Made by a program: the position numbers and the translations under genes. Positions 2,832 through 58,937 of a stretch of 64,000 nt of DNA are shown here, piece after piece. The DNA lies in the IMG/VR virus record IMGVR_UViG_3300032247_000914, positions 7,084 to 71,083 of that record; one strand, given 5' to 3'. Every line of letters begins with the position of its first letter. Positions within the stretch are counted from its first letter, which is position 1. Below the pieces are notes generated by a model, which worked only from the letters and a program-made list of their open reading frames with translations, made no database searches and was not told the origin of the DNA. Source of the stretch: a virus. Taxonomy: Duplodnaviria > Caudoviricetes.

Positions 2832-2874
2832 TATTTAGGTACCTATCATACAAATTGGTAGTGTATTTATGTGT

Positions 2875-4416: not shown

Positions 4417-4451
4417 TTAAGTGTCCTGGTATCCTATTATTTACTGTATTT

Positions 4452-43414: not shown

Positions 43415-44055
43415 AGTTCTAACCTTGTCAATCCTTCTTCAGTGCCAATTGGTCCGGAAAACCAAGTGTTGAAGGCCAGCACACATCTACGTTGACGCAT
43501 GGTCTGATAACCCATTACGGCATGTTGTAGATTACTGGGGAATAAAATAAGACGGCCAGTATTGGCTCCAAACTTGATCTCATCGTAGAGCCATGGTTTA
43601 TTTTGAAAATCCTTTTCGTATTCAACAACTGGACCACCACCAACATAGGATGGTTTGATGAAAGTCAGTGCTTCACTGCCTGTGGGAGCATCAATATAAT
43701 AACTGCCGCTGATGATTGAATTGGCATGTGAATGTGTAAAAATACTCTGTGGTATATTTTCGTGTTTGATTGCCCAACTTTGTGTAAACTGTAGTTTTTC
43801 AGAACCCATGACATCTTTGGCATACTTGTCCAGCTGAAGTTGTATCCATGCTTTTATTGATGGCACAGTGTCTAGTACACGTTTGTTTTTAGTAGTGGGG
43901 AATGAGCCATACTTGCTTTGAACCACATACTCTGCGGTCAGTATGGCATTGTGATCCTCTTTGGGGATCACAAGGTTGTCCACAGTGGCAACCACTGTGG
44001 GAAACAACATATGAGTCTTAAAATTATCTGTAGTTGGCTTAATTTTATACGTCAT
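43411..44055 (-). CDS. 2OG-Fe(II) oxygenase (TIGR02466-like)
   Basis: SWA, HSHANS, FPSNLQH, RCVLAFN; start reassigned outside the tRNA. Confidence 0.75.
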   Translation of the reverse strand: MTYKIKPTTDNFKTHMLFPTVVATVDNLVIPKEDHNAILTAEYVVQSKYGSFPTTKNKRVLDTVPSIKAWIQLQLDKYAKDVMGSEKLQFTQSWAIKHENIPQSIFTHSHANSIISGSYYIDAPTGSEALTFIKPSYVGGGPVVEYEKDFQNKPWLYDEIKFGANTGRLILFPSNLQHAVMGYQTMRQRRCVLAFNTWFSGPIGTEEGLTRLEL

Positions 44056-44059
44056 AATA

Positions 44060-44133
44060 TGGAGCGGGTAGCGAGAATCGAACTCGCGAGTGTTCCTTGG
44101 CAAGGAACCAGGTTACCATTACATCATACCCGC
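44060..44133 (-). tRNA. tRNA-Gly(GCC)
   Basis: Cloverleaf, loop TTGCCAA, CCA. Confidence 0.92.
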
Positions 44134-45342
44134 ATTGTTATCTTTAGTATCTGCTAATAACTGGACTAACTCATCTCTAACATCAAATTGTTTCATATGT
44201 TGATGGAATGATGGTTCAGCCCAGGTAGCATACCCTGGTGGAATTTTGGTAGTTATATTTGGATGTTTCCATGTTGGATCAACAATTCTAGACACTACTC
44301 CCCTGAACATGGGATCTTTTGTCAGTGAGTTTTTGATGCATTTAACACCACGTTCTGTAGCATACCGCCAAAATTCCGTTTCGTAAACTTGATTTTTAAA
44401 ATAATGGAACATGATCATGGTTTCCATTTCTCTAATCATTCTATCATATTTGGTATTGGCCAAACTAAAGTGTTTGCCTTCTTTCCATACAGCTTCGGCA
44501 GCCCATTGTATAACATCCATAAAATAAATCGAAGTTGCTTCAATGGGTTCAAGGAAAAAACTGGCATTGCCGTTATAACACAGTCTAGGATAAAAATTTT
44601 GTTTTCTATAATAATTTTTGAAACTGAAAGTGTTGGTATGATCGCTTGGTGTTAGGTTGTAATCACCAAATACTGTTTGTACATCTTCTTTGACTTGATC
44701 CAATGTGGCTGTTTGGTTGTTGTAAACATACCCAATACTACATCTATTTCGCAAAGGAATTCCAAATACCCAACCGTGTTTTCTCGCAAGATTCAATGAT
44801 GTATGGAATCTAGCATAGTCCCAATAGCACTGTGTGACATGTACTGAATTGACAGGAATATAGTCTGATATAACAAATTGATCTAGATCAGCTTCGCTGG
44901 GTTTGCCCGAGCAGTCTACAATGTAGGTACAATCAATATCGTCATAGCTGGCGACATTTCGATCTATAATTTTTACTCTAGGAGACTGCTGAACATAATC
45001 TAAAATAAAATCCTGTAGCTTGTTGGCATTGAAATGATAGGCATTGAACCCGGCGCTGAACCAATGTATAAATTCATCACCGTCAGACCCCCACCCAGAT
45101 TTCTGAATTCCCAGTTTGGGAGTGCCATCTATCTTTTCTAAATCTCCGTAGGTGAATCCCAAATTGTGGAATAACTGTATGGGAAATTCCAAAGTGGATC
45201 CTTCACCCACTGCTTGTGGTGGCTTATTGCCGTCAAAATACCAATCAATATCCCATTTGGTACTTTTTAAAAAATGCGAAACAGTATAGGCTCCCGCAGT
45301 ACCACGCCCAATAACTGCTAATTTTATTTTATTCATGCCCAT
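44119..45342 (-). CDS. Flavin-dependent halogenase-like
   Basis: GRGTAG, VGEGST, WVFGIP, FLEPIEAT; stop lies inside tRNA-Gly. Confidence 0.8.
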   Translation of the reverse strand: MGMNKIKLAVIGRGTAGAYTVSHFLKSTKWDIDWYFDGNKPPQAVGEGSTLEFPIQLFHNLGFTYGDLEKIDGTPKLGIQKSGWGSDGDEFIHWFSAGFNAYHFNANKLQDFILDYVQQSPRVKIIDRNVASYDDIDCTYIVDCSGKPSEADLDQFVISDYIPVNSVHVTQCYWDYARFHTSLNLARKHGWVFGIPLRNRCSIGYVYNNQTATLDQVKEDVQTVFGDYNLTPSDHTNTFSFKNYYRKQNFYPRLCYNGNASFFLEPIEATSIYFMDVIQWAAEAVWKEGKHFSLANTKYDRMIREMETMIMFHYFKNQVYETEFWRYATERGVKCIKNSLTKDPMFRGVVSRIVDPTWKHPNITTKIPPGYATWAEPSFHQHMKQFDVRDELVQLLADTKDNNAGMM

Positions 45343-45351
45343 ATTTAAGGA

Positions 45352-46515
45352 TTATTGTAATAGTAAAGATAGATCTTGAGCCAGTCCCATGCCTTCAATA
45401 TTGGCTGTATAAGACACTTGACCCCATGTACCATAGCCTAGGTCCACTAACACTGGATTTAGTAATTTACCTTCAACAGCATGTTTGATTACTGATTTAA
45501 ACAACATTTGTCTTTTCACAGTTTCTTTTATACGTGCTTGACCCCGATTGGTGGCAAACTTCCAAAAATCACTATCATACATATCATTTTTATAATAGTG
45601 TAACATGATCATATCTTCTAGTCTATTGATGTAATCATAATAGGTTTTATTTGGGTTTTCACTCTTGCCAGTCCAATGACGATGCGCCATGACATTTACC
45701 ACATTCATACAGGCAATTGATGTGGCTTCTAGGGGTTCTAAAAAGAAACTGGCATTGCCGTTAAATGCCACTCGACCATAAAAGTTTTGTTTACGGTAAT
45801 AATTATTGAATGTAAAACTATTTGTAGTTTGGCTAGGTGTTAGGCCGTACTGATCAAAAATTGATTGAACATCTTCCTTGACTTCATCTATGGTATTGAT
45901 TTTATGATTATACAAATAACCAATGCTACATCTATTTTGTAGAGGAATACCAAAAACCCATCCATGTTTTTTGGCAATGTTCAATGAATATTGAAATCTT
46001 GGAGTGTCCCAATAGCATTGAGTAACATGAACAGCATTGACTGGAATAGTTTGGGGAAGATGGTAATGGTCTAGTTCACTTTCGCTGGGTTTACCTGAAC
46101 AGTCCAACACAAAGTCAGAATCAATGTCACTGTAACTTTTTATATTACCGTTAAGGATTTTTACTCGGCTCTGAGTGCCCGCATAATTTATGATCCACTC
46201 TTGAAGTTTGACAGCATTGAAATGATAGGCCACAGTACCAGATGGGAACAAATGATAATATTCTTCACCAGATCCCCATCCTTGTTTTTTGATGCCTGCT
46301 TTAAATGTACCGTCTACGCTGTCTAGCTGTGGCAATTTGAATCCCAAGTATTGATCCAGGTTGACTGGAAATTCCACAGTGGAACCTTCGCCAACACTTT
46401 GGGGAGACACATTGGGATCAAAATACCAATCAATATCCCAATTGGTGTTTTTTAAAAAATACGCAATAGCATAACATCCTGCCGTGCCTCGGCCAATAAT
46501 TGTTAACTTTTTCAT
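45352..46515 (-). CDS. Flavin-dependent halogenase-like
   Basis: GRGTAG, VGEGST, WVFGIP, FLEPLEAT; close paralog of neighbour. Confidence 0.8.
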   Translation of the reverse strand: MKKLTIIGRGTAGCYAIAYFLKNTNWDIDWYFDPNVSPQSVGEGSTVEFPVNLDQYLGFKLPQLDSVDGTFKAGIKKQGWGSGEEYYHLFPSGTVAYHFNAVKLQEWIINYAGTQSRVKILNGNIKSYSDIDSDFVLDCSGKPSESELDHYHLPQTIPVNAVHVTQCYWDTPRFQYSLNIAKKHGWVFGIPLQNRCSIGYLYNHKINTIDEVKEDVQSIFDQYGLTPSQTTNSFTFNNYYRKQNFYGRVAFNGNASFFLEPLEATSIACMNVVNVMAHRHWTGKSENPNKTYYDYINRLEDMIMLHYYKNDMYDSDFWKFATNRGQARIKETVKRQMLFKSVIKHAVEGKLLNPVLVDLGYGTWGQVSYTANIEGMGLAQDLSLLLQ

Positions 46516-46529
46516 CTAGCTATTTAATA

Positions 46530-46607
46530 TGGAGTACGGGGTCGGATTTGAACCGACGGTTTTACGATTTTGCAGACCGTTGCATTGGGCCTCTCTGCCA
46601 CCCGTAC
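46530..46607 (-). tRNA. tRNA-Cys(GCA)
   Basis: Loop CTGCAAA, U73, CCA. Confidence 0.9.
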
Positions 46608-46615
46608 ATAAAATC

Positions 46616-46882
46616 TCAACCAGTTCTTTTGATAATGTGATAGCCAAACTGTGTTTGAACTGGGCCAGTGTGTGAACCAACATTAATACTGGCAACAGCA
46701 TCTTCAAATGGTTTAACCATTTGTCCTGGGCCAAATTCACCCAAGTCGCCACCGTTGTTACTGCTAGGACACTTGCTGAATTTTTTGGCCATTTCTTCAA
46801 AATTGCTACTGTTAAGATTGATTAGTTGCCTAAGTTCCTTGGCCAATTCTAAATTATCTACTAAAATATGACTTGCTCTCAT
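46616..46882 (-). CDS. ppiC: Parvulin peptidyl-prolyl isomerase
   Basis: ASHILV, SKCPS..GGDLGEF, MVKPFE, FGYHII. Confidence 0.92.
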   Translation of the reverse strand: MRASHILVDNLELAKELRQLINLNSSNFEEMAKKFSKCPSSNNGGDLGEFGPGQMVKPFEDAVASINVGSHTGPVQTQFGYHIIKRTG

Positions 46883-46894
46883 TTATTTTCCTTA

Positions 46895-47161
46895 TTAGCC
46901 TGTGCGTTTGATTATGTGATACCCAGCTGGGGTCTTGATTGGACCAGTATGTGAGCCAATACCAATACTGTTTAAAGCCGCCTCAAAAGCAGGATCCATT
47001 TGACCTGGAGCTATTTCTCCTAAATCTGCCAGATTATTTTTGCTATCTGGGCATGTACTATGTGTAAAGGCCAACATCGATATATCAATACCTTGATTGA
47101 TTTTTTTCCTAATCAATTGTGCTTCTTCTAATGTGTCCACTAAAATGTGACTGGCTCTCAT
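46895..47161 (-). CDS. ppiC: Parvulin peptidyl-prolyl isomerase paralog
   Basis: ASHILV, DLGEI..GQM, GYHIIKRTG. Confidence 0.85.
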   Translation of the reverse strand: MRASHILVDTLEEAQLIRKKINQGIDISMLAFTHSTCPDSKNNLADLGEIAPGQMDPAFEAALNSIGIGSHTGPIKTPAGYHIIKRTG

Positions 47162-47180
47162 TGGTTTTTCCTTATTAAAT

Positions 47181-47255
47181 TGGTACCTCGTGACAGGGTC
47201 GAACTGCCGACATTCGCCGTGTAAAGGCGCTACTCTACCACTGAGTTAACGAGGC
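47181..47255 (-). tRNA. tRNA-Val(TAC)
   Basis: Loop TTTACAC, CCA. Confidence 0.9.
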
Positions 47256-47268
47256 TCTTAAACATTAT

Positions 47269-47922
47269 TTAACCTGCATTATTATTGATGAAAGAATCTC
47301 CAAGACCATACTCACCTATCGGGTGAAGATTAAATGCTAAAGAATACCTAGTCAAATTTGAATTATGACGAGTAATTCTATGAAACAAATAACTAGGAAA
47401 AAATACCAGCATGTTTTTCCTTGGCGATATTGTAAATCCTTCAGTATTCAATAAATTATATTCTTCTATTCCGCCTAATAAAAAATTGGATAAACTTAGA
47501 TTATGATTTCCAAATTCTAATATACCACCATCTATAATTTCATCAAAATAAAGAACGCCACTGTAAAAACTATTCTTGTGGGAATGAAATTGTGATTCCC
47601 CGCCACGCTTTACCTTAGTGCCCCATGATGTGGTTATTATAAATTTCTTATTGGAAATTCGCAACACATTTTGAATATAGTCGTCAAAATTATCTAATAT
47701 TGAATTTTCTAAATCGGGAAACTGCTTCAAGATTTTTCTATCTGTTGTTGAATAAGCAGGAATCGTTCCATTAAAATTTGTTCCAGATGCTTGATTAATA
47801 TAAAATTCACTATTTTTAATCTGTGTTTTAACAGCAGTTAGGTCAGCGGTCAAAAATGTAGTGGACACTGGTGAACTGAACGCTGGAAACACTGTGAATT
47901 TAGATATTTCAAAACTATACAT
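47269..47922 (-). CDS. 2OG-Fe(II) oxygenase (TIGR02466-like)
   Basis: HSHKNS, FPSYLFH, RYSLAFN. Confidence 0.75.
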   Translation of the reverse strand: MYSFEISKFTVFPAFSSPVSTTFLTADLTAVKTQIKNSEFYINQASGTNFNGTIPAYSTTDRKILKQFPDLENSILDNFDDYIQNVLRISNKKFIITTSWGTKVKRGGESQFHSHKNSFYSGVLYFDEIIDGGILEFGNHNLSLSNFLLGGIEEYNLLNTEGFTISPRKNMLVFFPSYLFHRITRHNSNLTRYSLAFNLHPIGEYGLGDSFINNNAG

Positions 47923-47931
47923 ATTATCCTA

Positions 47932-48005
47932 TGGAGCGGGGTAGGAGAATCGAACTCCTCGCTTTAGCTTGGAAGGCTAAGGTATTACCACTATACGAAC
48001 CCCGC
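47932..48005 (-). tRNA. tRNA-Gly(TCC)
   Basis: Loop CTTCCAA, CCA. Confidence 0.92.
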
Positions 48006-48305
48006 ATACTTTAATTAAACACACTTGGAACGTTTCACAACGGCGGTGTTCTTGCCTAAATACCTAAACTACGTTTAGATCAAGTACGTTTAATTAAAGT
48101 GTCTAGCTACCTACACCACATAGGCCCTAGACTGAGCAGTTACTCTGTCCACGTATTTCTTCTTCTGGTAAAGGTTAACGTTCCTCACCTTAGGCAGTTT
48201 TCGGTATCCCATATAGCGGGACCGTAAGGTCAAGTCCTAATGTACCCCCTAGTCTATCGTTCAAGGGACGCTCTTATTATAACGTAAAAGAGTAAACCGG
48301 GTTAC
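48006..48305 (-). ncRNA. Candidate ~300-nt structured RNA between tRNAs
   Basis: No ORF; many inverted repeats incl. 13-bp ACTTTAATTAAAC/GTTTAATTAAAGT and long-range GGAACGTT/AACGTTCC. Confidence 0.5.
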
Positions 48306-48381
48306 TGGTGCCCTTTGTCGGATTCGAACTGACCACCTACGCATTACAAGTGCGTTGCTCTACCAAATGAGCTAAAAGGGC
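48306..48381 (-). tRNA. tRNA-Thr(TGT)
   Basis: Loop CTTGTAA, CCA. Confidence 0.92.
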
Positions 48382-48393
48382 AATATAACTTAA

Positions 48394-48969
48394 TTATCTA
48401 TTAAATTTCAACACCATGTTAATTACGATCCTATCATTGCTCTCAACAGGGTTACTGGATGCATGTTTTATGTGCGATGGAAATACCAAAACCCTACCTT
48501 GTTTGGGCGTTACCCTAGCTGTTTCGTCAGGATAAAATAAACAAGTATCGCCATCCGCATCTTTAACATAGTAAATTGCTGAGATAAAATCAACAGGATT
48601 ATCCACATCTACATGTGGGGTATTCCACCTACCTGCCGCTTCCTTTACTCTCCAAAGCAAATTAAATTTAACTCTGTTAATCAAGAGATTCTTGAATTTT
48701 TCATCAGGTTTTAAATGATAGTCTATTGCCTTCAATATGGGATACACAGCACGAACTGGACATACCGATTGTTCCTTGATGGTTTCTCCAAAAATTGGAC
48801 TCACTAGTTGACCAACATCATAAATCTCATCAGTGTCTGTAGGTGGGTCACCATTGCTACCTATGACAGTATTTGTATCATAAAACCATTTTAAATATCG
48901 AGTAACACTTATAAGTTTTTTTTGATCATCTACCGTCATGACACCATCAATGATGATATGACGATCCAT
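48394..48969 (-). CDS. 2OG-Fe(II) oxygenase-like
   Basis: PHVD, YYV..DGDT, HAS, RIVIN. Confidence 0.75.
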   Translation of the reverse strand: MDRHIIIDGVMTVDDQKKLISVTRYLKWFYDTNTVIGSNGDPPTDTDEIYDVGQLVSPIFGETIKEQSVCPVRAVYPILKAIDYHLKPDEKFKNLLINRVKFNLLWRVKEAAGRWNTPHVDVDNPVDFISAIYYVKDADGDTCLFYPDETARVTPKQGRVLVFPSHIKHASSNPVESNDRIVINMVLKFNR

Positions 48970-48971
48970 GA

Positions 48972-49142
48972 TTACTCAACTGTATTTTGCTTTGGATCCA
49001 TCATTTTAGCGTCCCACTCGGCCAAACGTTGACGGAACTCATCTTCTGTCAAATTATGCCAACCAATACAGTGACCAATTGGACTGCGGCCACAGCCGCA
49101 TGTACCAAACTCTTTTGGATCTTCTTTTACTCTAATCTGCAT
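48972..49142 (-). CDS. CDGSH-like Fe-S/Zn finger mini-protein (56 aa)
   Basis: Missed by track; CGCGRSPIGHCIGWH. Confidence 0.6.
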   Translation of the reverse strand: MQIRVKEDPKEFGTCGCGRSPIGHCIGWHNLTEDEFRQRLAEWDAKMMDPKQNTVE

Positions 49143-49386
49143 GTCGTACCTTTCTAAATTTTTCTAAATATTCAACGCCCACATGTCCAGCTTCAATTTC
49201 TTGTAGTGCGCTGACAATATTTCCATTCGGAGTATTTACTAGCTTTCTACTGCCATGAGCAAGTTCACGGGCACGTATACTAGCGACTAATACTAGATTA
49301 AATCTATTACCAATCTTTTCAACACAAACATCGTTATTAAGCGAGTTGGTCAAAGTCTTCTTTTCAATCGCAAATGGAAAATTCAT
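49132..49386 (-). CDS. rpoZ: RNA polymerase omega subunit homolog
   Basis: VEKIGNRFNLVLVASIRAREL...ALQEIEAG closely follows the omega consensus. Confidence 0.85.
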   Translation of the reverse strand: MNFPFAIEKKTLTNSLNNDVCVEKIGNRFNLVLVASIRARELAHGSRKLVNTPNGNIVSALQEIEAGHVGVEYLEKFRKVRHAD

Positions 49387-49404
49387 AAGATCCTAATTGT
49401 TATA

Positions 49405-49487
49405 TGGTGCGGACGGTGAGACTCGAACTCACACCCCGAAAGACTGGCTTCTAAGACCAGCGCGGCTACCAATTACGCCACGTCCGC
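49405..49487 (-). tRNA. tRNA-Leu(TAG)
   Basis: Loop CTTAGAA, variable arm, CCA. Confidence 0.92.
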
Positions 49488-49502
49488 ATTGTTTAAAAAT
49501 TA

Positions 49503-49531
49503 ATTGTAACACATTATTTACAACATGTCAA
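49503..49531 (-). promoter_or_regulatory. sigma70-type promoter
   Basis: TTGACA-17-TACAAT. Confidence 0.75.
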
Positions 49532-49534
49532 CAA

Positions 49535-50071
49535 TTAAATTGTGAAATTATAATTTATAATCATCCTTAAATTTTCTTGAGGACAACTACTAGCATGATA
49601 TCTCAATCCATCAAAGAATACCGCACGACCTTTTTTTGGTTGTATGCGCTGTATCACAACAGATTTGGTATCATCAAATATCAATGTGTCACCGTCTGAA
49701 TCATCAACGTAGTAAACACATACCACATGTGGGAAATTTTGATCCCTATGTATGTTGTTGTGCTCTGTTTTAAATTTTTCAACTACGGGCAACTGTATAA
49801 ACGGTCTAATCTGTATCAGCTGATCAATTTCCAGTTTGGCCTGCTCACAAGCATTGACTAGTACATCATTGAACTGATCAAAATATTTTTCATCTTTAAA
49901 GGAAGTCAGTGCCTCAAATACACTGGTGACCAATCCTGGGGTGATAAAATTACCCTTGTCTAAAAAGAAATGCCAACCAGAAGTATTTTTCAACAACAAG
50001 GAATTTTTGATGTCATCTTGTTGCTGTACTGAAACCACATCATCTGCAATTATTACATTATTACCTATCAT
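49535..50071 (-). CDS. 2OG-Fe(II) oxygenase-like
   Basis: IHRD, YYVDDSDGDT, YHAS, RMIIN. Confidence 0.75.
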   Translation of the reverse strand: MIGNNVIIADDVVSVQQQDDIKNSLLLKNTSGWHFFLDKGNFITPGLVTSVFEALTSFKDEKYFDQFNDVLVNACEQAKLEIDQLIQIRPFIQLPVVEKFKTEHNNIHRDQNFPHVVCVYYVDDSDGDTLIFDDTKSVVIQRIQPKKGRAVFFDGLRYHASSCPQENLRMIINYNFTI

Positions 50072-50658
50072 AGTAGCGTATAGTTAGCGATACAGCGTAT
50101 GTCTTTGGTTGGTGGTGTACTGGAATGAAAACGTGTGCCATTGAACAGTATACATCTGCCTTTTTTAGGACTGACTCTTTGATGTTCTTCTATACTACCA
50201 AGGCTCACTGTGTCACCATAAAACGGTTTAAACAACACTGTATCCCCGTCTGTATCATTTACATAGTACAAGCATACCAAATGATCAAATGTATGATCCA
50301 CATGTACATTGTCGTATTTTTTATGTAGTTCTTCTCTCATGGGAAAATGTAAAAAACTCCTACTGGCCAATATTTTCTTCAATGGAAAATTGATTTTTTT
50401 TGCCGCGGCATGAGCAATTACTTTCATTTCGTCAAACATAAACTTGTTATGATACTTGATCAACTCGTCATTGAAATAACTGGCCATACCTGGAGTGCGC
50501 TGTGTTATTCCAGCTCTTGCCATATCTTCTTTAGATAGGGCGATGTCATGCATATAGACCCAGGATGTTCTATGCCCAAGCAACAAAGACTCGATTTTAT
50601 CCTGTGTTACTTTTGGTATAACATTGTCTAAAATTATAATTTCATTTTTATCTATCAT
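50068..50658 (-). CDS. 2OG-Fe(II) oxygenase-like
   Basis: VHVD, YYVNDTDGDT, FHSS, RCIAN. Confidence 0.75.
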   Translation of the reverse strand: MIDKNEIIILDNVIPKVTQDKIESLLLGHRTSWVYMHDIALSKEDMARAGITQRTPGMASYFNDELIKYHNKFMFDEMKVIAHAAAKKINFPLKKILASRSFLHFPMREELHKKYDNVHVDHTFDHLVCLYYVNDTDGDTVLFKPFYGDTVSLGSIEEHQRVSPKKGRCILFNGTRFHSSTPPTKDIRCIANYTLL

Positions 50659-52754: not shown

Positions 52755-52758
52755 TATT

Positions 52759-52847
52759 TGGAGGAGGGATGGTAGAATCGAACTCCAACCGCTTTCGCAG
52801 TCCATCTGTTTTCAAGACAGTGCTGGGCCCAGCCCAGATAACCCTCC
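52759..52847 (-). tRNA. tRNA-Ser(TGA)
   Basis: Loop CTTGAAA, variable arm, CCA. Confidence 0.88.
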
Positions 52848-52923: not shown

Positions 52924-54330
52924 TTAGAAGCTGTAACGATCGCTCATCACAGTCTTCAACATGATGCCTTCTGGTGTGAATTCACTCATGTCTGCGGCCA
53001 ATAGTGCCTTGGCAATAGCTGGGCTAAAACCTGACACTAGTGCGGAACCACTCTTGTCTGACTTAACAGGCACGTTATCTGAACTGTTTAGGTTCCAGAA
53101 AACAACTTGTGGTACAGCATAGCCTGCGGCTTCGTACTTGCGTTCAATCATCTCCATTGCTGAAGAGTCATGCTTTACACATTGGTTGAACTGCATGTCA
53201 CTCAAGATCAATACCATTTCTGGCATTTCTTCTTGAGGAACATTACCCTTTACAGCAACATCAAGGATCTTGCTGAAAGCCGCATGTAGGTTAGTACTCA
53301 TGCCCCAATCGGACTTAACCATTTGGGCCATCTTTTGAACCACATCACCCTTTAGGGTCATTAGTTCTGGCCGGTCACTGAAAGTTAGGAACGTGTCCTT
53401 GAACTTGCCGGTGTTCTTTTCAGCCAAATACAAACCTAGTGAAACTGCCACATCCATACAAGTGACCTTAGAGTTCTTGCCTGCTGGGCATGACATAGAA
53501 CCGCTAACGTCAACTAGTGGTAGGATGTTTGCGTCGCCAACATAGTTAGGCAAAGCCTCCCATTGAGCAACGATCAAATCAGTTTCTGTCTTGTCAAAAG
53601 TGCGGTAGTTACCAACACCCTTCAAGACATCGTAAGGGAAAATTGCCGAAGCATTTACCTTTACGGTTGGGTCGCCCTTAACCAAACTCGCAACATACTC
53701 AGCGAACTTTGTAGTGTTACGGTTAAATGCCTTCTTGTAACGGCTGGCCGCTACACTTGGCACATGGCTAAAGTTGATGTTATCCCAGTCCTTGGCACAC
53801 ATTTGTGTTTCAACGACCTTGGTAAGTGCTACTAGACTCTTACGGTAGAACTTTGGGCTCATACCAAAGAATTCACGGATTTCACGTGCTACTTCACCCT
53901 TACGTGGAGTCCACTTAGCAGCCAAGCCATTCTTCTCACGAAGAGCGTCGCCCAGCATTGTGTAAGCGGCTGACTTCAATTCCTTGTCAGTAAAGACAAA
54001 GATGTCGTCCCAACGACCCAATTCTGGAATCTTCTTCAAGAGAGCCATGGCGGCCAACTTGTCAGTCTTTTCCAGGTACTTCAGGATTGAACGGAACAAT
54101 TCACGTTCACCTGCTCCACCACGAGCATCACGTGCCCATAGTGCGATACGCAGTGCTAGTTCGCGATCAGCCACCAAAGCGGCTGTAAAGGCAGGAACAA
54201 TGTCCTTGCCACGGCTAGCACCAATGTTATAAAATAGATCAACCACCTTATTGGAAGTTGACTTGCGAGCCTTCATACCATTAGCGGTACGGGCTTCTTG
54301 ATTTGCTACTGCTTCTACAAATGTTGCCAT
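52924..54330 (-). CDS. TROVE-like plus vWA domain protein (DUF2828 type, Ro60-related)
   Basis: WARDARGGAGERELF, GRWDD, AAKWTP, LVDVSGSM MIDAS, ILSDMQF, VVFWNL; GAAAGGAG RBS. Confidence 0.8.
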   Translation of the reverse strand: MATFVEAVANQEARTANGMKARKSTSNKVVDLFYNIGASRGKDIVPAFTAALVADRELALRIALWARDARGGAGERELFRSILKYLEKTDKLAAMALLKKIPELGRWDDIFVFTDKELKSAAYTMLGDALREKNGLAAKWTPRKGEVAREIREFFGMSPKFYRKSLVALTKVVETQMCAKDWDNINFSHVPSVAASRYKKAFNRNTTKFAEYVASLVKGDPTVKVNASAIFPYDVLKGVGNYRTFDKTETDLIVAQWEALPNYVGDANILPLVDVSGSMSCPAGKNSKVTCMDVAVSLGLYLAEKNTGKFKDTFLTFSDRPELMTLKGDVVQKMAQMVKSDWGMSTNLHAAFSKILDVAVKGNVPQEEMPEMVLILSDMQFNQCVKHDSSAMEMIERKYEAAGYAVPQVVFWNLNSSDNVPVKSDKSGSALVSGFSPAIAKALLAADMSEFTPEGIMLKTVMSDRYSF

Positions 54331-54343
54331 GATTGGCTCCTTT

Positions 54344-54403
54344 CAGGTTAATGCCTTGCGGCGGGTTTCATTATGCTTGAAAATTGATTGCTGAACTTAA
54401 CCT
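54344..54403 (-). ncRNA. CAGCAA-motif RNA A (in 5' leader of TROVE-like gene)
   Basis: AGGUUAA-GUU-CAGCAA...UUAACCU-G; internal GCC-GCAA-GGC; abuts RBS. Confidence 0.65.
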
Positions 54404-54416
54404 ATATAAATTCAAA

Positions 54417-54583
54417 CAGGATCGTTGTCGACTGCTTTTATTTTACTCAGGCCATCACTCTGAGCTTGTTAGTCTTGCTTCAATAGCCGCCTTCAACGCT
54501 AGGCAGTTTTACGTGCTTTGCTCCAACAGACTACCACAGTGTCTAACAGTTCTTAAGTAGATTAAGATTGCTGAACCGATCCT
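54417..54583 (-). ncRNA. CAGCAA-motif RNA B (167 nt)
   Basis: AGGAUCG-GUU-CAGCAA...CGAUCCU-G; several internal hairpins. Confidence 0.65.
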
Positions 54584-54617
54584 AAAACTGTCTAACAAGT
54601 TTCCTTGCTATGTGTAT

Positions 54618-54646
54618 ATTGTATGTGAAACACGGACTTGTGTCAA
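54618..54646 (-). promoter_or_regulatory. sigma70-type promoter driving RNA B, RNA A and the TROVE-like gene
   Basis: TTGACA-17-TACAAT. Confidence 0.8.
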
Positions 54647-54661
54647 TACAATTTGGAAAAA

Positions 54662-54781
54662 CAGGATACGTTTTTTACGAAGGCTTTTGAGGCCTTTGCT
54701 CAACCGCTGAGCGAATCTGGCATGAAGCCAAATGTTGGAATCGAACCAACGTGTCATAAATGACTTTGCTGTGCGTATCCT
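54662..54781 (-). ncRNA. CAGCAA-motif RNA C with permuted tRNA arms (YrlA-like)
   Basis: AGGAUACG-CA-CAGCAA...CGUAUCCU-G; T arm, short stem-loop, D-like arm, Leu-CAA anticodon arm. Confidence 0.7.
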
Positions 54782-54787
54782 CAAACT

Positions 54788-54863
54788 TGGTGCCGCCCCC
54801 AGGGATCGAACCTGGTTCCTCGGTGCTTCAAACCGGTGCTATGACCACATCAGCTAAAGCGGC
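54788..54863 (-). tRNA. tRNA-Phe(GAA)
   Basis: Loop TTGAAGC, CCA. Confidence 0.88.
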
Positions 54864-54871
54864 AAATTATT

Positions 54872-54946
54872 TGGCCCGGCGTAGAGGAATCGAACCTCTA
54901 TAAAGACTTTAGAAGAATCTTGTCCTATCCATTGAACGAACGCCAG
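54872..54946 (-). tRNA. tRNA-Arg(TCT)
   Basis: Loop CTTCTAA, CCA. Confidence 0.9.
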
Positions 54947-54954
54947 TTAACCTT

Positions 54955-54983
54955 ATTATACACTGGTTTTCAGTGTAAGTCAA
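54955..54983 (-). promoter_or_regulatory. sigma70-type promoter
   Basis: TTGACT-17-TATAAT. Confidence 0.75.
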
Positions 54984-54986
54984 ATA

Positions 54987-55064
54987 TGGTACCCTAGGTC
55001 AGATTCGAACTGACACGATTCTCCTTTTGAGAGAGACGCCTCATACCAATTGGGCTACTAGGGC
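54987..55064 (-). tRNA. tRNA-Leu(CAA), short variable region
   Basis: Loop CTCAAAA, CCA. Confidence 0.85.
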
Positions 55065-55075
55065 ATTAAAAAATT

Positions 55076-55149
55076 TGGTAGTTCCTGAAAGAATCGAACT
55101 TTCATTTACGCCATGTCACGGCATTGTTCTGCCATTAAACTAAGGAACT
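55076..55149 (-). tRNA. tRNA-Val(GAC)
   Basis: Loop GTGACAT, CCA. Confidence 0.8.
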
Positions 55150-55155
55150 ATATAC

Positions 55156-55247
55156 TGGTACCAGCGGAGGGGATCGAACCCTCTCAAGAACGCTAATCTG
55201 GCGCTAAAAGGCTTATAAGACCTCTCTGACTTCCAAGTCTCGCTGGC
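55156..55247 (-). tRNA. tRNA-Ile(TAT) with long variable arm
   Basis: Loop CTTATAA, 92 nt, CCA. Confidence 0.8.
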
Positions 55248-55256
55248 ATTAAAAAT

Positions 55257-55332
55257 TGGGGTGTCTTACCGGTATCGATCCGGTACCACCAGTTTCACAG
55301 ACTAGTATGCAGGCCACTACACTAAAGACACC
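55257..55332 (-). tRNA. tRNA-His(GTG)
   Basis: Loop CTGTGAA, G-1 opposite C73. Confidence 0.9.
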
Positions 55333-55343
55333 ATAATTTAATT

Positions 55344-55420
55344 TGGTGAGTCCTGACGGATTCGAACCGCCGACAACCAGTTTCGAAGACTGGGACTCTA
55401 TCCAACTGAGCTAAGGACCC
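55344..55420 (-). tRNA. tRNA-Arg(TCG)
   Basis: Loop CTTCGAA, CCA. Confidence 0.92.
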
Positions 55421-55866
55421 GAAGAGTTGAAATGTGGATATTCGTAATTAATAGTTTCTACGTTATCCCTAAAAACTACAGCACCATTTAGTAGATGAAA
55501 TCTACGTGCTAACTGTGTTGGTGGGCTTAATGTAACAAACCTTTTAATGTTTGGCTTATGCTCTTTTATGTGCGATAGCGCATTAAAAATTAATGTCCTA
55601 CCTGCTCCTGTAGCATAACTCCAGATTGTGTAAAATACAGCAGTATCTGGATCGTTGTGTAAAGTAAAAAGTTCGTTCTCTGATTTAGGAACAAAATCTT
55701 GATAGCTTATACATGTGATTGCTTTGACTTTTCCTTCTTCATCTTTATAAACAAAGATGTCTTTGTTGTCACCGATCCTATTTAAAATAGGAATAGTTGG
55801 TCGAACAGGATCCTCGTTCAAAAAGTTTATATATTGATCTGTTTCTGATTTTATTGCGTATAACAT
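55411..55866 (-). CDS. Hypothetical protein, possibly GNAT-like
   Basis: AVFYTIWSY..GAGR, FVTLSP; stop inside tRNA-Arg(TCG). Confidence 0.55.
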   Translation of the reverse strand: MLYAIKSETDQYINFLNEDPVRPTIPILNRIGDNKDIFVYKDEEGKVKAITCISYQDFVPKSENELFTLHNDPDTAVFYTIWSYATGAGRTLIFNALSHIKEHKPNIKRFVTLSPPTQLARRFHLLNGAVVFRDNVETINYEYPHFNSSGP

Positions 55867-55930
55867 GGCGGTCCGATTGTTTGGTGGTATACACTTAATT
55901 ATCTTAATATATTATAATTCTGTTAATTAT

Positions 55931-56006
55931 TGGTGGTGATGGTGAGACTCGAACTCACGATAATCTCCGTATGAAGGAGGTACATTGGCCGCTATGCTAC
56001 ATCACC
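55931..56006 (-). tRNA. tRNA-Met or Ile2 (CAT)
   Basis: Loop TTCATAC, CCA. Confidence 0.85.
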
Positions 56007-56007
56007 A

Positions 56008-56196
56008 TTATACTTGGATATCAACGTTCGCACCTTTGATATTGGCAGGACGAACTTTGGCTGTATCATCATACAGGTATTGTTCTACTTCTATGACTTT
56101 TTTATGAGTAACAGGATCTTCCAAAGTTGTGTAAACAGTTTTTCGATTACTGTTGTAAACTCTATCCCAAACATTAAGTACGCTCTGTATGATCAT
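56008..56196 (-). CDS. Hypothetical protein (62 aa)
   Basis: Start reassigned to MIIQSV. Confidence 0.5.
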   Translation of the reverse strand: MIIQSVLNVWDRVYNSNRKTVYTTLEDPVTHKKVIEVEQYLYDDTAKVRPANIKGANVDIQV

Positions 56197-56212
56197 ATTG
56201 TATTTAATACCA

Positions 56213-56310
56213 TATAGAAACACACTAGTGAAATCGCACCACCCCAGTTTCACGCTGAGTTCCCAGTAGCTACAGAGGCATTGTCCTCCTGCGAATAATG
56301 TGTTTTTATA
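56213..56310 (-). ncRNA. Candidate ~100-nt structured RNA abutting tRNA-Lys CCA
   Basis: Ends pair (TATAAAAACACA/TGTGTTTCTATA); inner TCGCA/TGCGA multiloop. Confidence 0.45.
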
Positions 56311-56385
56311 TGGTAGGGGCACCGGGACTCGAACCCGGATAGATCGGTTAAAAGCCGACTATTCTAGCCTTTGAATTATACCCCC
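56311..56385 (-). tRNA. tRNA-Lys(TTT)
   Basis: Loop CTTTTAA, CCA. Confidence 0.92.
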
Positions 56386-56388
56386 ATA

Positions 56389-56464
56389 TGGTCCCTAGCG
56401 TCAGATTTGAACTGACACCTCATCGGTTAAGAGCCGAGTACGCTACCATTAACGCCAGCTAGGG
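56389..56464 (-). tRNA. tRNA-Lys(CTT)
   Basis: Loop CTCTTAA, CCA. Confidence 0.92.
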
Positions 56465-56527
56465 ATGGATTCGTAATTGATTTTCTTTTACGTGCCATCC
56501 AGGACCATACGGGGGTCTAGGATGACA

Positions 56528-56551
56528 CTATCGTTTCGCTGAACGTTTCAT
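56528..56551 (-). CDS. Putative leader peptide MKRSAKR
   Basis: GGAGAA RBS; ATG AAA CGT TCA GCG AAA CGA TAG; stop runs into a 9-bp hairpin. Confidence 0.5.
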   Translation of the reverse strand: MKRSAKR

Positions 56552-56576
56552 ATCATTCTCCATTTAAAAAATTGAA

Positions 56577-56789
56577 TTTGTAAGTAGTTGCCCCATCGTT
56601 ATAGCAACCATTCACCCGTGTAATAAACTCGAGCGGGACTCGGTACGTCACTTGGGATTCATCCAGTTTGTCTCCGTTGCAGACCACAGCAATTAGCTCA
56701 CCGTGCGGGAGTTGAACCCAAAACCTTCTACTTGACAGTACCTTCGAAGAATACTTACAAGCGTGACTTCACTTGCTGACACTTACAAA
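56577..56789 (-). ncRNA. CAGCAA-motif RNA G (213 nt)
   Basis: UUUGUAAGU-GU-CAGCAA...ACUUACAAA; internal GGG-UUCAACU-CCC T-arm-like hairpin. Confidence 0.55.
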
Positions 56790-56792
56790 ACT

Positions 56793-56866
56793 TGGTGCTC
56801 CATCGAGGAATCGAACCACGATTGCCGGACTACAAAACCGGAGTATTTCCATTATACTAATAGAGC
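56793..56866 (-). tRNA. tRNA-Thr(TGT), second copy
   Basis: Loop TTTGTAG with U31-U39 mismatch, CCA. Confidence 0.75.
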
Positions 56867-56874
56867 AAATAAAA

Positions 56875-56935
56875 CAGGATAGCATTTTTTGGCTTTTTTT
56901 CAAGAAAAGATTTTTTAATTTGCTGTTACTATCCT
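56875..56935 (-). ncRNA. CAGCAA-motif RNA D carrying a Ser(UGA) anticodon stem-loop
   Basis: AGGAUAG-UAA-CAGCAA...CUAUCCU-G; CUUUU-CUUGAAA-AAAAG. Confidence 0.7.
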
Positions 56936-56940
56936 AAAAC

Positions 56941-57018
56941 TGGTCGGAGTAGTAGGATTCGAACCTACGACCCTCTGCTCCCAAAGCAGATGCGCTAGCC
57001 AGGCTGCGCTATACTCCG
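56941..57018 (-). tRNA. tRNA-Pro(TGG)
   Basis: Loop TTTGGGA, CCA. Confidence 0.92.
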
Positions 57019-57028
57019 AATAAACTAT

Positions 57029-57102
57029 TGGCATCCCCCCAGAGACTCGAACTCCGACGAACGGTTTTGGAGACCGCTATGCTGCCATTACATCAGGGAG
57101 AT
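57029..57102 (-). tRNA. tRNA-Trp(CCA)
   Basis: Loop CTCCAAA, CCA. Confidence 0.9.
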
Positions 57103-57108
57103 AAAACT

Positions 57109-57183
57109 TGGCGCCGCAGACGGGAATCGAACCCGCCTAAGTTGGATAGACAATCCAGTGCTCTCCCAGAGAACTACTACGGC
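57109..57183 (-). tRNA. tRNA-Asp(GTC)
   Basis: Loop TTGTCTA, G73, CCA. Confidence 0.85.
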
Positions 57184-57189
57184 AAAAAC

Positions 57190-57263
57190 TGGCAGGCGCA
57201 TTAGGGATCGAACCTAAACTAACAGAGTCAAAGTCTGTTGTGCTACCATTACACAATGCGCCA
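57190..57263 (-). tRNA. tRNA-Gln(TTG)
   Basis: Loop CTTTGAC, U1-U72 mismatch, CCA. Confidence 0.9.
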
Positions 57264-57272
57264 ACAATAAAA

Positions 57273-57330
57273 CAGGATACATTTTCTTTTATACCAAAAA
57301 AAGTTATATAAAATTTGCTGTTAGTATCCT
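57273..57330 (-). ncRNA. CAGCAA-motif RNA E
   Basis: AGGAUAC-UAA-CAGCAA...GUAUCCU-G; weak U-rich internal hairpin. Confidence 0.65.
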
Positions 57331-57336
57331 AAAACT

Positions 57337-57411
57337 TGGTAGCCACGGACAATTTCGAAATGTCGACTTATCGCTTATCAAGCGATTACTCTGCCTCTGA
57401 GTTACGCGGCT
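57337..57411 (-). tRNA. tRNA-Ile(GAT)
   Basis: Loop TTGATAA, CCA. Confidence 0.88.
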
Positions 57412-57416
57412 AAATT

Positions 57417-57491
57417 TGGTGGAGGCCGAGGAAATCGAATCCTTCTAGACAGCATCCTTGCAAGGGATACCCGTAGCCCACTACTGCCCCC
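57417..57491 (-). tRNA. tRNA-Ala(TGC), atypical D arm
   Basis: GGGGGC/GCCTCC with G3-U70, loop CTTGCAA. Confidence 0.8.
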
Positions 57492-57500
57492 AAATTGTAT

Positions 57501-57576
57501 TGGCTCCCCAGGGTGGGATCGAACCACCGACACCTTGATTAACAGTCAAGTGCAACTACCGCTGTGCTACTAGGGA
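57501..57576 (-). tRNA. tRNA-Asn(GTT)
   Basis: Loop CTGTTAA, CCA. Confidence 0.92.
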
Positions 57577-57585
57577 ATAAACTTT

Positions 57586-57660
57586 TGGTGCCTCCGGATG
57601 GAATCGAACCACCATCCCCGCGTTCGTAGCACGGTATCCTGTCCATTGAACGACAGAGGC
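57586..57660 (-). tRNA. tRNA-Arg(ACG)
   Basis: Loop CTACGAA, CCA. Confidence 0.92.
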
Positions 57661-57669
57661 AAACTAACT

Positions 57670-57745
57670 TGGTATAGCGTACGGGAATCGAACCCGCCTA
57701 GTCACCTTGAAAGGGTGATGACCTAGCCCAGAAGTCTAACGCTAT
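57670..57745 (-). tRNA. tRNA-Glu(TTC)
   Basis: Loop CTTTCAA, CCA. Confidence 0.88.
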
Positions 57746-57754
57746 ATAATAAAA

Positions 57755-57816
57755 CAGGATGCTTTTTTACGGTTTTGATTAAAAGTCAAATGTATAAAAT
57801 TTGCTGAACGCATCCT
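57755..57816 (-). ncRNA. CAGCAA-motif RNA F carrying a Lys(UUU) anticodon stem-loop
   Basis: AGGAUGC-GUU-CAGCAA...GCAUCCU-G; UUUGA-CUUUUAA-UCAAA. Confidence 0.7.
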
Positions 57817-57821
57817 AAAAC

Positions 57822-57897
57822 TGGTTGCGGGACTTGGATTTGAACCAAGGATGGCAAAGGCTTATGAGACCTCGCTGGTGACCGGACCCTCCCCGCG
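57822..57897 (-). tRNA. tRNA-fMet-like (CAT)
   Basis: C1-A72 mismatch, loop CTCATAA; lacks the 3 G-C anticodon-stem pairs. Confidence 0.8.
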
Positions 57898-57903
57898 ATA
57901 AAT

Positions 57904-57979
57904 TGGCGCGATATGGGGGTTTCGATCCCCCTACCTCGGCAGTGACAGTGCCGTGCTCTCCCGATTGAGCTAATACCGC
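57904..57979 (-). tRNA. tRNA-Asp(GTC), second copy
   Basis: Loop CTGTCAC, CCA. Confidence 0.9.
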
Positions 57980-57984
57980 AAAAC

Positions 57985-58060
57985 TGGCGTCCCGTATGGG
58001 AATCGAACCCATCTTACCAACGTGAAAGGCTGGTGTCCTAAACCGATAGACGAACGAGAC
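57985..58060 (-). tRNA. tRNA-Glu(TTC), second copy
   Basis: Loop CTTTCAC, CCA. Confidence 0.92.
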
Positions 58061-58066
58061 AAATTA

Positions 58067-58153
58067 TGGTGGAGACGACTGGAGTCGAACCAGTAGTGCC
58101 TTTCGGGCGGCGGATTTACAGTCCACTGGGGTTACCAATTTTCCTACATCTCC
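58067..58153 (-). tRNA. tRNA-Tyr(GTA)
   Basis: Loop CTGTAAA, variable arm, CCA. Confidence 0.92.
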
Positions 58154-58154
58154 A

Positions 58155-58937
58155 TTAACCTTTGAAACTGTCGTAAAACACAACAGTTTCTTCAACTTTA
58201 TCTATTATAACATCATTCGTGTAGTTGTCAATAGCATTTGAAATCCAACAATACAATAAATCATTTTTAATGTCACCATCTAAATGGTTACATCTTGGGT
58301 CATTGCTTAGTATCTTAAACATATTGGCACGTCTGGGCCATTGCCCGGCTACACTAACGGCCATTAGTGGACTAACAATTTCTACACCGTTGGTCCACTT
58401 TATGGGATATTTGATATCTCGAATAAAATTGCTATTGCTTAAATCTAACGCAAGAGTTTTCTCTACATTGACCGCGATACCATATTCCCATAAATGTATG
58501 ATTTTTACACGATCTCGAATTTGTGGTAGCAACACAGTGTCAAAGTACAGTAGTGCTGACTTCAATTCTAAAACATCTTTGTCATAATCAAACAAACTAT
58601 CAAAATACCCGCACACAGCTTGCCATATAACAGGATCTTCTTTGTGTATCCTAGATCCTGGAACAGTGGCCCCGCGATGGATATATCTATGTGTTCTATG
58701 AAATACTGTGCCATTACTGGGCCAAGTAAACACAGCCACATCTGGCATATCTTCCAACAGCTCTTGAAACTGATGAATCATGATGTCCCATACACCGCAC
58801 CCGCTCACACCTAAATGGCAAATCTCAGCATTATAGTGATTGCGAAGTTTTTCAATGTAGCTAAGATAATAGTAGCGTTCGCTGTGTTTGTTTGATACAA
58901 CATGGCAAAAGCTAGACCCATAAAATCCAATTTTCAT
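58155..58937 (-). CDS. Hypothetical protein, SGNH-like N-terminus
   Basis: MKIGFYGSSFC...LGVSGCG; start reassigned outside the tRNA-like gene. Confidence 0.55.
   Translation of the reverse strand: MKIGFYGSSFCHVVSNKHSERYYYLSYIEKLRNHYNAEICHLGVSGCGVWDIMIHQFQELLEDMPDVAVFTWPSNGTVFHRTHRYIHRGATVPGSRIHKEDPVIWQAVCGYFDSLFDYDKDVLELKSALLYFDTVLLPQIRDRVKIIHLWEYGIAVNVEKTLALDLSNSNFIRDIKYPIKWTNGVEIVSPLMAVSVAGQWPRRANMFKILSNDPRCNHLDGDIKNDLLYCWISNAIDNYTNDVIIDKVEETVVFYDSFKG

Follow-up and report, generated by a model that had tools for sequence, protein, structure and literature searches.

Mini RNAs in a phage tRNA array

We describe three short RNA elements, mini RNAs D, E and F (hereafter minis), in a 64,000-nucleotide stretch of DNA from a tailed phage (Caudoviricetes; positions 7,084 to 71,083 of IMG/VR record IMGVR_UViG_3300032247_000914), which we call the window. 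The window is part of a 71-kb contig that covers about 20% of a giant freshwater phage, related complete contigs being about 355 kb long. Between 44 and 59 kb it carries 33 transfer RNA (tRNA) genes found by ARAGORN, all on the minus strand, and Rfam makes 30 tRNA calls in the window. The array contains three tRNA-sized gaps (56871-56940, 57269-57335 and 57751-57821) that hold D, E and F, elements with identical ends. These common ends read AAAACAGGAT...ATCCTAAAAC on the plus strand, a pattern matched three times as against none in 100 shuffles. On the minus strand the 5′ part consists of GUUUUA, AGGAU with one to four variable bases, two or three nucleotides (nt) and CAGCAA; an A/U-rich interior follows, and the 3′ part is formed by the complement of the variable bases with AUCC and then UGUUUUAUU. 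The variable bases of this closing stem change from copy to copy, with pairing retained.

Mini D (56873..56936, minus strand) has a closing stem of 8 base pairs (bp) including one U-G pair (56927-56934 with 56877-56884), a CAGCAA box at 56920-56925 and a score of 71.7 bits under our covariance model R1, which was built from the freshwater clade alone. Because the U-G pair would be a C-A mismatch on the opposite strand, the functional strand of D is the minus-strand RNA. Mini F (57753..57817, minus strand) pairs 57810-57815 with 57757-57762, has its CAGCAA box at 57801-57806 and scores 71.6 bits; mini E (57271..57331, minus strand) pairs 57324-57329 with 57275-57280, has the box at 57315-57320 and scores 54.5 bits.

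The original prediction, made from the letters of this DNA, was that F and D display perfect anticodon stem-loops, and both hairpins are exact to the base on the minus strand: UUUGA-CUUUUAA-UCAAA at 57774-57790 in F, of the Lys UUU type and containing U36AAUCA41, and CUUUU-CUUGAAA-AAAAG at 56893-56909 in D, of the Ser UGA type. The loops are also, as had been claimed, those of the phage's own tRNAs. CUUUUAA of F is the loop of the genuine tRNA-Lys(UUU) at 56311..56385 (minus strand), which has a G/C anticodon stem and reads U36AACCG41, and CUUGAAA of D is the loop of the genuine tRNA-Ser(UGA) at about 52756..52847 (minus strand), close to the DUF2828 gene described below, which ARAGORN misses by default and finds in a relaxed run. 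A tRNA-Ala(UGC) gene at 57417-57491 (minus strand), between tRNA-Ile and tRNA-Asn, is likewise missed by default and found by the relaxed run, and Rfam at its gathering score misses both of these genes.

Mini E had been set apart as carrying a weaker, U-rich hairpin, and its interior does form a different A/U hairpin without a canonical anticodon arm: at minimum energy it folds into an A/U helix of 8 bp with a loop of 11 nt, an alternative fold having 5 bp and the 8-nt loop UUUGGUAU. The minimum-energy fold of F includes the anticodon-like hairpin (z = -2.9). A 5-bp stem, a 7-nt loop, U33, a purine at position 37 and a natural anticodon are thus combined in D and in F, and not in E. Neither ARAGORN nor the Rfam tRNA model makes a call at D, E or F in the window scan, in keeping with the claim that the minis hold no other tRNA parts. 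None of the three has an acceptor CCA end, the 3′ strand running on into UGUUUUAUU, and for D and F this agrees with the suggestion that they cannot be aminoacylated.

Conservation of the hairpin among relatives

About 200 related loci (labelled with L-numbers) were gathered through the neighbouring protein together with the pattern of the common ends, which we call the handle. By the handle alone, 310 distinct family members were extracted, in size classes of about 50-70, 100-135, 160 and 220-250 nt, and 154 distinct minis of at most 72 nt were chosen without regard to their interiors. Hairpins were scored by an explicit count of stems and loops against dinucleotide shuffles in place of minimum-energy folding, which recovers a 7-nt loop in only 39 of the 154 minis, A/U stems scoring poorly; in every count, distinct sequences were taken to be independent of one another.

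In 114 of the 154 minis a 7-nt loop is closed by a stem of 5 bp or more, compared with 17.4±3.6 in the shuffles (maximum 29), and in 104 of these 114 the stem is exactly 5 bp long. Loop sizes 3-6 and 8-12 stay at about the shuffle level, size 9 alone being modestly raised (26 against 15.8±3.4). The 69 unique hairpins have C32 in 39 cases (background C 0.13), U33 in 57 (background 0.30), A37 in 44 and A38 in 45. U33 and a purine at 37 (R37) occur together in 43 of the 69, where 17% would be expected, and A at the wobble position 34 is avoided as it is in real tRNAs (2 of 43, with 20 expected). Measured against 1946 distinct real tRNAs from the same loci, 67 of the 154 minis carry a loop identical to that of a real tRNA, a number that is 0.2±0.4 in shuffles; such natural anticodon loops are found in 23 of 73 mid-size family members and in none of 83 long ones. 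Where the loop has the form CU-NNN-AA, the anticodon is a natural one in 23 of 25 cases (expected fraction 0.475). The commonest mimic loops are those of Lys UUU (21), Arg UCU (8), Ser UGA (7), Thr UGU (7), Asn GUU (6) and Tyr GUA (4), and natural loops seen less often are those of Ser GCU, Ser GGA, Cys GCA, Leu CAA and Met CAU. By chance, about 11% of shuffled interiors contain a 5-bp/7-nt hairpin, and the probability that a random 7-mer of the same composition is identical to a real anticodon loop is about 0.015; a chance origin of the hairpins in D and F is excluded because their relatives show the same hairpin.

All five pairs of the hairpin have double-sided changes in a model-based alignment of 77 distinct sequences. 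In this alignment, which was fitted to the structure, 85.5% of the cells are paired, compared with 67.2% after shuffling, and the covariation score is 0.52 as against 0.17 for shuffles and at most 0.11 when the partners are slid. Between orthologous scaffolds the anticodon is swapped by single changes (UUU/UCU/GCU and UGA/CGA/GGA/GUA), and in some of them the entire stem is flipped, for example from UUUGA/UCAAA to UCAAA/UUUGA. The hairpin in the minis is clearly kept by selection, and these observations support D, E and F as real structured small RNAs. The original prediction had named a check on itself, namely whether 7-nt loops with U33 and A37, and CU-NNN-AA loops with varying anticodons, are enriched in homologues. 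The enrichment is clear, and since 7-nt loops, the U33/R37 combination and natural anticodons are all over-represented in the 154 minis, the prediction has come through the check that it set.

The handle family and its Ro60-fold protein

Across the family the handle consists of a covarying closing stem of 6-9 bp, 2-4 nt, an unpaired and invariant CAGCAA, a variable interior, and the 3′ strand followed by G or UG. D, E and F lie 2.5-3.5 kb from, and on the same strand as, a gene for a 468-amino-acid protein (52924..54330, minus strand) that Pfam assigns to DUF2828 plus DUF7788 and PHROG to 'RNA-binding protein'. Across the window and 80 protein-anchored loci, model R1 has 110 matches, every one of them on the strand of the DUF2828 gene. 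Handle RNAs also stand beside DUF2828 on the gene's strand in Escherichia phage EC6, Mycobacterium phage Lewan, Listeria phage LP-048, Synechococcus phage BUCT-ZZ01 and Vibrio phage V07, and in these five phages they comprise minis together with members of 107-126 nt that have T and D arms. R1 picks up the minis of the Listeria phage, the cyanophage and EC6 with E-values of 1.8e-9 to 0.03, the scores being 37.8 bits for LP-048 (E 1.6e-6), 49.2 bits for BUCT-ZZ01 and 23.2 bits for EC6; in BUCT-ZZ01 (ON615601; mini at L208 5836-5900) a Lys-type mini adjoins the DUF2828 gene. A strict scan gave no handle RNA within 6 kb of DUF2828 in Aeromonas phage PX29 or Salmonella phage Munch.

The AlphaFold2 model of the DUF2828 protein (pLDDT 92.7, pTM 0.91) is a helical ring followed by a C-terminal vWA domain with an invariant MIDAS motif DxSxS (D274, S276, S278). 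In a Foldseek search against the PDB the top 12 matches listed are all Ro60/TROVE proteins, from Xenopus, human, Deinococcus and a Thermus phage, which match the model over its full length with TM scores of 0.47-0.66 and E-values of 1e-8 to 1e-6; the next matches are to vWA domains only, at 3e-3 or weaker and thus three orders of magnitude behind. The best PDB profile matches, which are weak, are to TROVE/Ro60, and the nearest ESM Atlas clusters combine TROVE with vWA_Ro60. Pfam TROVE (PF05731) gives no match in the contig at E-values up to 0.01, a single-sequence search of the protein against the PDB gives none, and neither does an NCBIfam search. From the model and these comparisons we confidently assign a Ro60 fold to the DUF2828 protein. 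The DUF2828 gene of Mycobacterium phage Lewan is annotated as a Ro-like RNA-binding protein, and DUF2828 occurs in 705 phage records of one collection. The co-occurrence of gene and RNAs, together with the Ro60 fold, leads us to presume that the protein binds the handle. The reading that fits best is therefore one of a Ro60-like protein accompanied by Y-like RNAs of a separate kind, in which the cargo copies the anticodon arm. Because the hairpin is the cargo of a handle family tied to a Ro60-fold protein, the likely mechanism moves from a free RNA to a ribonucleoprotein.

Ligase genes are found near DUF2828 in two other phages: an RtcB-like ligase lies 1.3 kb downstream of it in Listeria phage LP-048 (L207 5852-7063) and an annotated RNA ligase 0.3 kb upstream in Salmonella phage Munch (L211 4476-5684).

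The DUF2828 gene has family members at its own doorstep. A short handle element (54342..54404, minus strand; R1 22.7 bits, E 0.007) lies directly before the gene start, in the leader, and with two longer members it adjoins the open reading frame (ORF) at 52924-54330. The longer members have the same ends and lie at about 54417-54583 and at 54662-54781 (both minus strand), the second containing a T-arm-like hairpin like that of YrlA-type cargo. The leader element is kept in dozens of relatives, where the model matches fall at about 4930-4990 and the gene starts at 5001 (many of L021-L083). Its position suggests feedback control of the DUF2828 protein through binding of its own RNA.

Other cargos are seen in more distant clades. 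Felix-O1-like viral contigs (L224-L290) contain a lineage of minis in which the 5-bp stem, UCUGA/UCGGA, stays constant and the 7-nt loop changes in its middle triplet, which is CGA, GUA, GUU or CUA before AA, with A or G and not U at position 33; this loop is anticodon-like, without the U-turn base. A GCGGA loop core (UGCGGAU, AGCGGAA) on A/U stems is shared by mycobacteriophage and Felix-O1-like minis (L206 4472-4521, L205 5879-5938 and relatives), and it may represent a second type of cargo that has been conserved between phages very distant from each other. Exact anticodon mimicry was considered as a trait of the whole family and was rejected, since Felix-O1-like, Listeria and mycobacteriophage minis have other loops.

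Genomic slots and transcription

A same-strand tRNA ends 5-8 nt upstream of 143 of 203 mini copies, and the next tRNA begins 10-13 nt downstream of 139 of the 203. The minis thus sit in tRNA slots, from which they would be freed as the tRNAs are processed. Upstream of the tRNA run that holds F, E and D is a consensus promoter of the sigma-70 type, TTGACA-16-TATAAT (58204..58231, minus strand; 12 of 12 positions), and no terminator-like site was found between this promoter (58231-58204) and 56776. A 233-nt contig from a freshwater RNA library spans tRNA-Thr and D with 2 mismatches, and in the RNA runs the depth over ORF bins of that stretch is close to zero. The metatranscriptome consists of contigs only, which are silent on RNA ends, strand and level and could include carried-over DNA, so this match is a hint that D is co-transcribed with tRNA-Thr.

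The same array contains a divergent long handle member at 56577..56789 (minus strand), with the closing stem UUGUAAGU/ACUUACAA and CAGCAA. In two freshwater RNA-library assemblies the segment 56527-56657, which is the 3′ part of this long CAGCAA member and the stretch beyond it, has depths of 5890 and 1408 compared with tens elsewhere, and it may be a very abundant stable RNA.

We also considered the minis as stand-ins for lost tRNAs. However, 37 of 57 minis (33.6 expected), and 21 of 23 of the Lys type, share their locus with a real tRNA of matching anticodon, and this explanation was rejected on account of such coexistence. The anticodon stems of the real tRNAs in these phages are 60% G+C, and those of the minis are A/U-rich.

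Possible function of the minis

The mechanism that we consider best suited to these observations has two modules. The minis would be cut from the phage tRNA precursor transcript. The handle (closing stem of 6-8 bp, 2-3 nt, CAGCAA and the 3′ C-UGUU tail) would most probably dock on the Ro60-fold DUF2828 protein, as Y RNAs do on Ro60. The cargo, held between A-rich spacers, would in the freshwater giant phage clade be a copy of an anticodon arm, in which a stem of exactly 5 bp closes a 7-nt loop that has a natural anticodon along with C32, U33 and A37-A38. This two-module design of a processed RNA is clearer for D and F, and less clearly so for E. Because the minis have no acceptor end, D arm or T arm, they are unusable for charging or translation, and their most likely job would be to present an anticodon arm to proteins that read such arms. 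The likeliest clients would be the anticodon nucleases of host defence (AriB/PARIS, PrrC/RloC, Cas13, and retron- or colicin-type enzymes). The particle might occupy or sequester the nuclease while phage tRNAs with other, G/C-rich anticodon stems sustain translation. That the minis serve as bait for host anticodon nucleases is the interpretation toward which we lean, although we hold it tentatively and think it slightly short of an even chance. The larger proposal, in which a Ro60-like ring with swappable anticodon arms (Lys, Thr, Asn, Tyr, Ser, Arg and others) acts as a programmable bait that neutralises or senses AriB, PrrC, Cas13 and retron effectors, is conceivable, but we regard it as doubtful.

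Several observations on known nucleases are consistent with a role as bait. AriB cuts the tRNAs for Lys (UUU), Thr (UGU) and Asn (GUU) at U36AAUC/A41 (the slash marks the cut), the change U39A abolishes cleavage, and T5 escapes by means of variant tRNAs (PMC12409363). Mini F has the exact AriB site U36AAUCA41 in place of the U36AACCG41 of the phage's own tRNA-Lys, and the Lys, Thr and Asn types belong to the five mimic loops seen most often. U39 is present in 21 of 21 Lys-type minis and the full AriB site in 6 of 21, the corresponding numbers for real phage tRNA-Lys being 17 of 46 and 1 of 46. Cas13b6 cleaves isolated anticodon hairpins (PMC13692257), and the main recognition cues of PrrC sit in the anticodon stem-loop (PMC1484252).

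A number of points weigh against the minis being such bait. AriB also needs contacts with U16/U17 in the D loop, and when the AriB site was restored in T5 tRNA-Lys cleavage was not (PMC12409363); for both reasons a bare hairpin may be a poor AriB ligand. Among the Lys-type minis only those 6 have the full AriB site, and no Thr- or Asn-type mini has it. The A/U stems are weak, and the all-A/U hairpin of D is missing from its minimum-energy fold. The hairpins that minis carry as cargo in Felix-O1-like, Listeria and mycobacterial phages have loops other than natural anticodon loops, so that anticodon mimicry is not required for the core function of the family. Only 1-5 minis were found per genome, probably an undercount, and a stoichiometric decoy would need very high expression. 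Finally, the distinct sequences were scored as independent although they are related, a caveat that the effect sizes far exceed. The more specific idea that the minis are general copies of the AriB cleavage site was rejected, given the 6 of 21 among the Lys type (F included) and none among Thr and Asn.

An alternative that shares much of this scheme is that the minis act as a sentinel or regulator of an RNA-damage response, the arm being a sacrificial substrate and not a mere sponge for nucleases. Once the arm is cleaved, or once the Ro-like ring has bound the halves of a cleaved tRNA, the particle would switch toward repair or decay by RNA ligase, RtcB or exonucleases. In bacteria, rsr-yrlBA-rtcBA operons react to fragments of tRNAs that were cut in their anticodon loop and have been implicated in the repair of tRNA (PMC7790460), genes for RtcB or an RNA ligase adjoin DUF2828 in LP-048 and Munch, and the handle element in the DUF2828 leader would fit a feedback of this kind. 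We nevertheless judge such a role rather unlikely: the scanned part of the ORFs of the 64-kb window yielded neither a ligase nor an RtcB gene, and every conjectural step that this explanation takes is one that it holds in common with a role as bait. It could also be that the cargo has no tRNA-specific role and is a spacer hairpin for folding or protein binding, its loop being a stable U-turn or a relic of a tRNA gene. The minis do occupy tRNA slots, about one third of the hairpin-bearing minis have non-natural loops, distant clades bear other hairpins on the same handle, and E has no mimic. A neutral or structural loop, however, would not shun A34 (2 against 20) nor hit natural anticodons in 23 of 25 CU-NNN-AA loops, and the exact 5-bp length persists through whole stem flips alongside the anticodon swaps; a relic should have left some trace of a D or T arm, of which there is none, and the stems are unlike those of the phage tRNAs. 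On this balance the absence of any tRNA-specific role seems unlikely to us.

The arm could instead be a ligand for enzymes that modify positions 34 and 37 of tRNA (t6A37, i6A37, mnm5s2U34, queuosine), either to change the modification of host tRNAs or because the ribonucleoprotein requires a modified RNA. Position 36 is U or A in 59 of the 69 unique hairpins, the class that reads ANN and UNN codons, and tRNAs reading those codons carry t6A37 or i6A37. Several loops contain a run A36-A37-A38, and enzymes that modify tRNA also use YrlA RNAs as substrates (Chen et al. 2014, PMC4201824). The bias at position 36, however, may simply mirror the A/U-rich composition (background A 0.47, U 0.30) and no benefit to the phage is evident, which makes this explanation quite improbable in our view. 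A last possibility is that the anticodon pairs with a codon on the 30S subunit or on mRNA so as to sense or block codons. Anticodon hairpins on their own bind to programmed 30S subunits in vitro, and the anticodons used are natural. We found no feature that supports codon-directed action, entry into the A site is unlikely for an RNA mounted on a ring protein of 50 kDa, and the anticodon varies freely between orthologous scaffolds, so that we consider it very improbable indeed.

Returning to the minis as bait for anticodon nucleases, the interest of this reading is that bacterial immunity is now seen to act commonly by cutting tRNAs (PrrC, PARIS, Cas13, retrons). The answers known from phages are repair enzymes and replacement tRNAs; a protein-docked anticodon arm would, if the reading is true, be a third answer, by RNA mimicry, and the first RNA-decoy counter-defence against tRNA-targeting immunity. 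It would also provide a function for the very widespread uncharacterised DUF2828 family and extend the tRNA mimicry of the Ro60/Y-RNA world to the half of tRNA that the known Y RNAs omit. Synechococcus phage BUCT-ZZ01 offers a cultured system.

Relation to known RNAs

Our literature searches returned no publication on these RNAs or on a link between DUF2828 and RNA. The minis are best classed with the Ro60/Y-RNA kind of particle, and a bare anticodon arm as cargo is without described precedent. Like the YrlA and Y RNAs that work with Ro60/Rsr (Chen et al. 2014, PMC4201824; RF02553), the handle RNAs have paired ends that would be the protein-binding stem, lie on the same strand and within a few kb of a Ro60-fold gene, are present in several copies per genome and carry cargo that copies parts of tRNA. 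The YrlA order of T arm, loop-closed stem and D arm is present in the longer handle RNAs, whereas D, E and F have neither T nor D arm; the minis show the anticodon arm alone, which is the part of tRNA that YrlA omits. The phage protein differs too, being DUF2828/DUF7788 and not Pfam TROVE, and the handle is a short covarying stem with an unpaired CAGCAA. No Y-RNA family of Rfam, RF02553 and RF00019 included, is among the 38 Rfam matches obtained at E-values up to 10 over 54300-58200. The bacterial rsr-rtcB linkage is echoed by the ligase genes near DUF2828 in LP-048 and Munch.

The best non-tRNA Rfam match is to the Class I RNAs of Dictyostelium (RF01414), with 26.2 bits for E and 21.7 bits for D, both below the gathering score of 41.5 bits. 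Class I RNAs (Kjellin et al. 2021, PMC7919456) resemble the minis in being 42-65 nt long with a 5′ G, a structure-conserved closing stem of 6 bp, an adjacent unpaired motif CCUUACAGCAA comparable with the nnACAGCAA of the phage RNAs, a variable A/U-rich interior and a 3′ CUGU. Their known direct binder in Dictyostelium is the RRM protein Rnp1A/CIBP, and literature searches gave no domain information for an unnamed Class I RNA-binding protein. The likeness is a lead on the Class I RNAs, since a shared handle would mean one ancient protein-docked family in phages, giant viruses and amoebae.

The tRNA-Lys, tRNA-Thr and tRNA-Asn of T5, which counter PARIS AriB (PMC12409363), are likewise a phage RNA answer to tRNA-targeting immunity and have the same tRNA identities. 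The phage studied here shares a T5-like trait in that its real tRNAs have anticodon stems unlike the AriB target site of E. coli tRNA-Lys(UUU). T5, however, makes complete and chargeable replacement tRNAs, whereas D and F are unchargeable hairpins on a handle, which would, if anything, compete for the nuclease.

In outline the minis also resemble the armless mitochondrial tRNAs of nematodes and mites, which consist of a closing stem, connectors and a 5-bp/7-nt anticodon arm in no more than 55-65 nt. The minis differ in having no discriminator or CCA, in sharing the CAGCAA box with non-tRNA relatives of 100-250 nt and in coexisting with full tRNAs of the same anticodon. No bacterial translation factor is known to use RNAs of the armless type.

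Other genes in the window

The minus strand at 42224-50658 encodes three paralogous ORFs of the tryptophan-halogenase type and five 2OG-Fe(II) oxygenase ORFs, with single tRNA genes between them; two of these halogenase-like genes form a tandem duplicate of recent origin, with a 300-nt repeat at 72% identity. At 987-8231 (minus strand) three adjacent ORFs of 1259, 513 and 614 amino acids have many matches to collagen-like tail-fibre families and look like a repetitive set of fibre genes.

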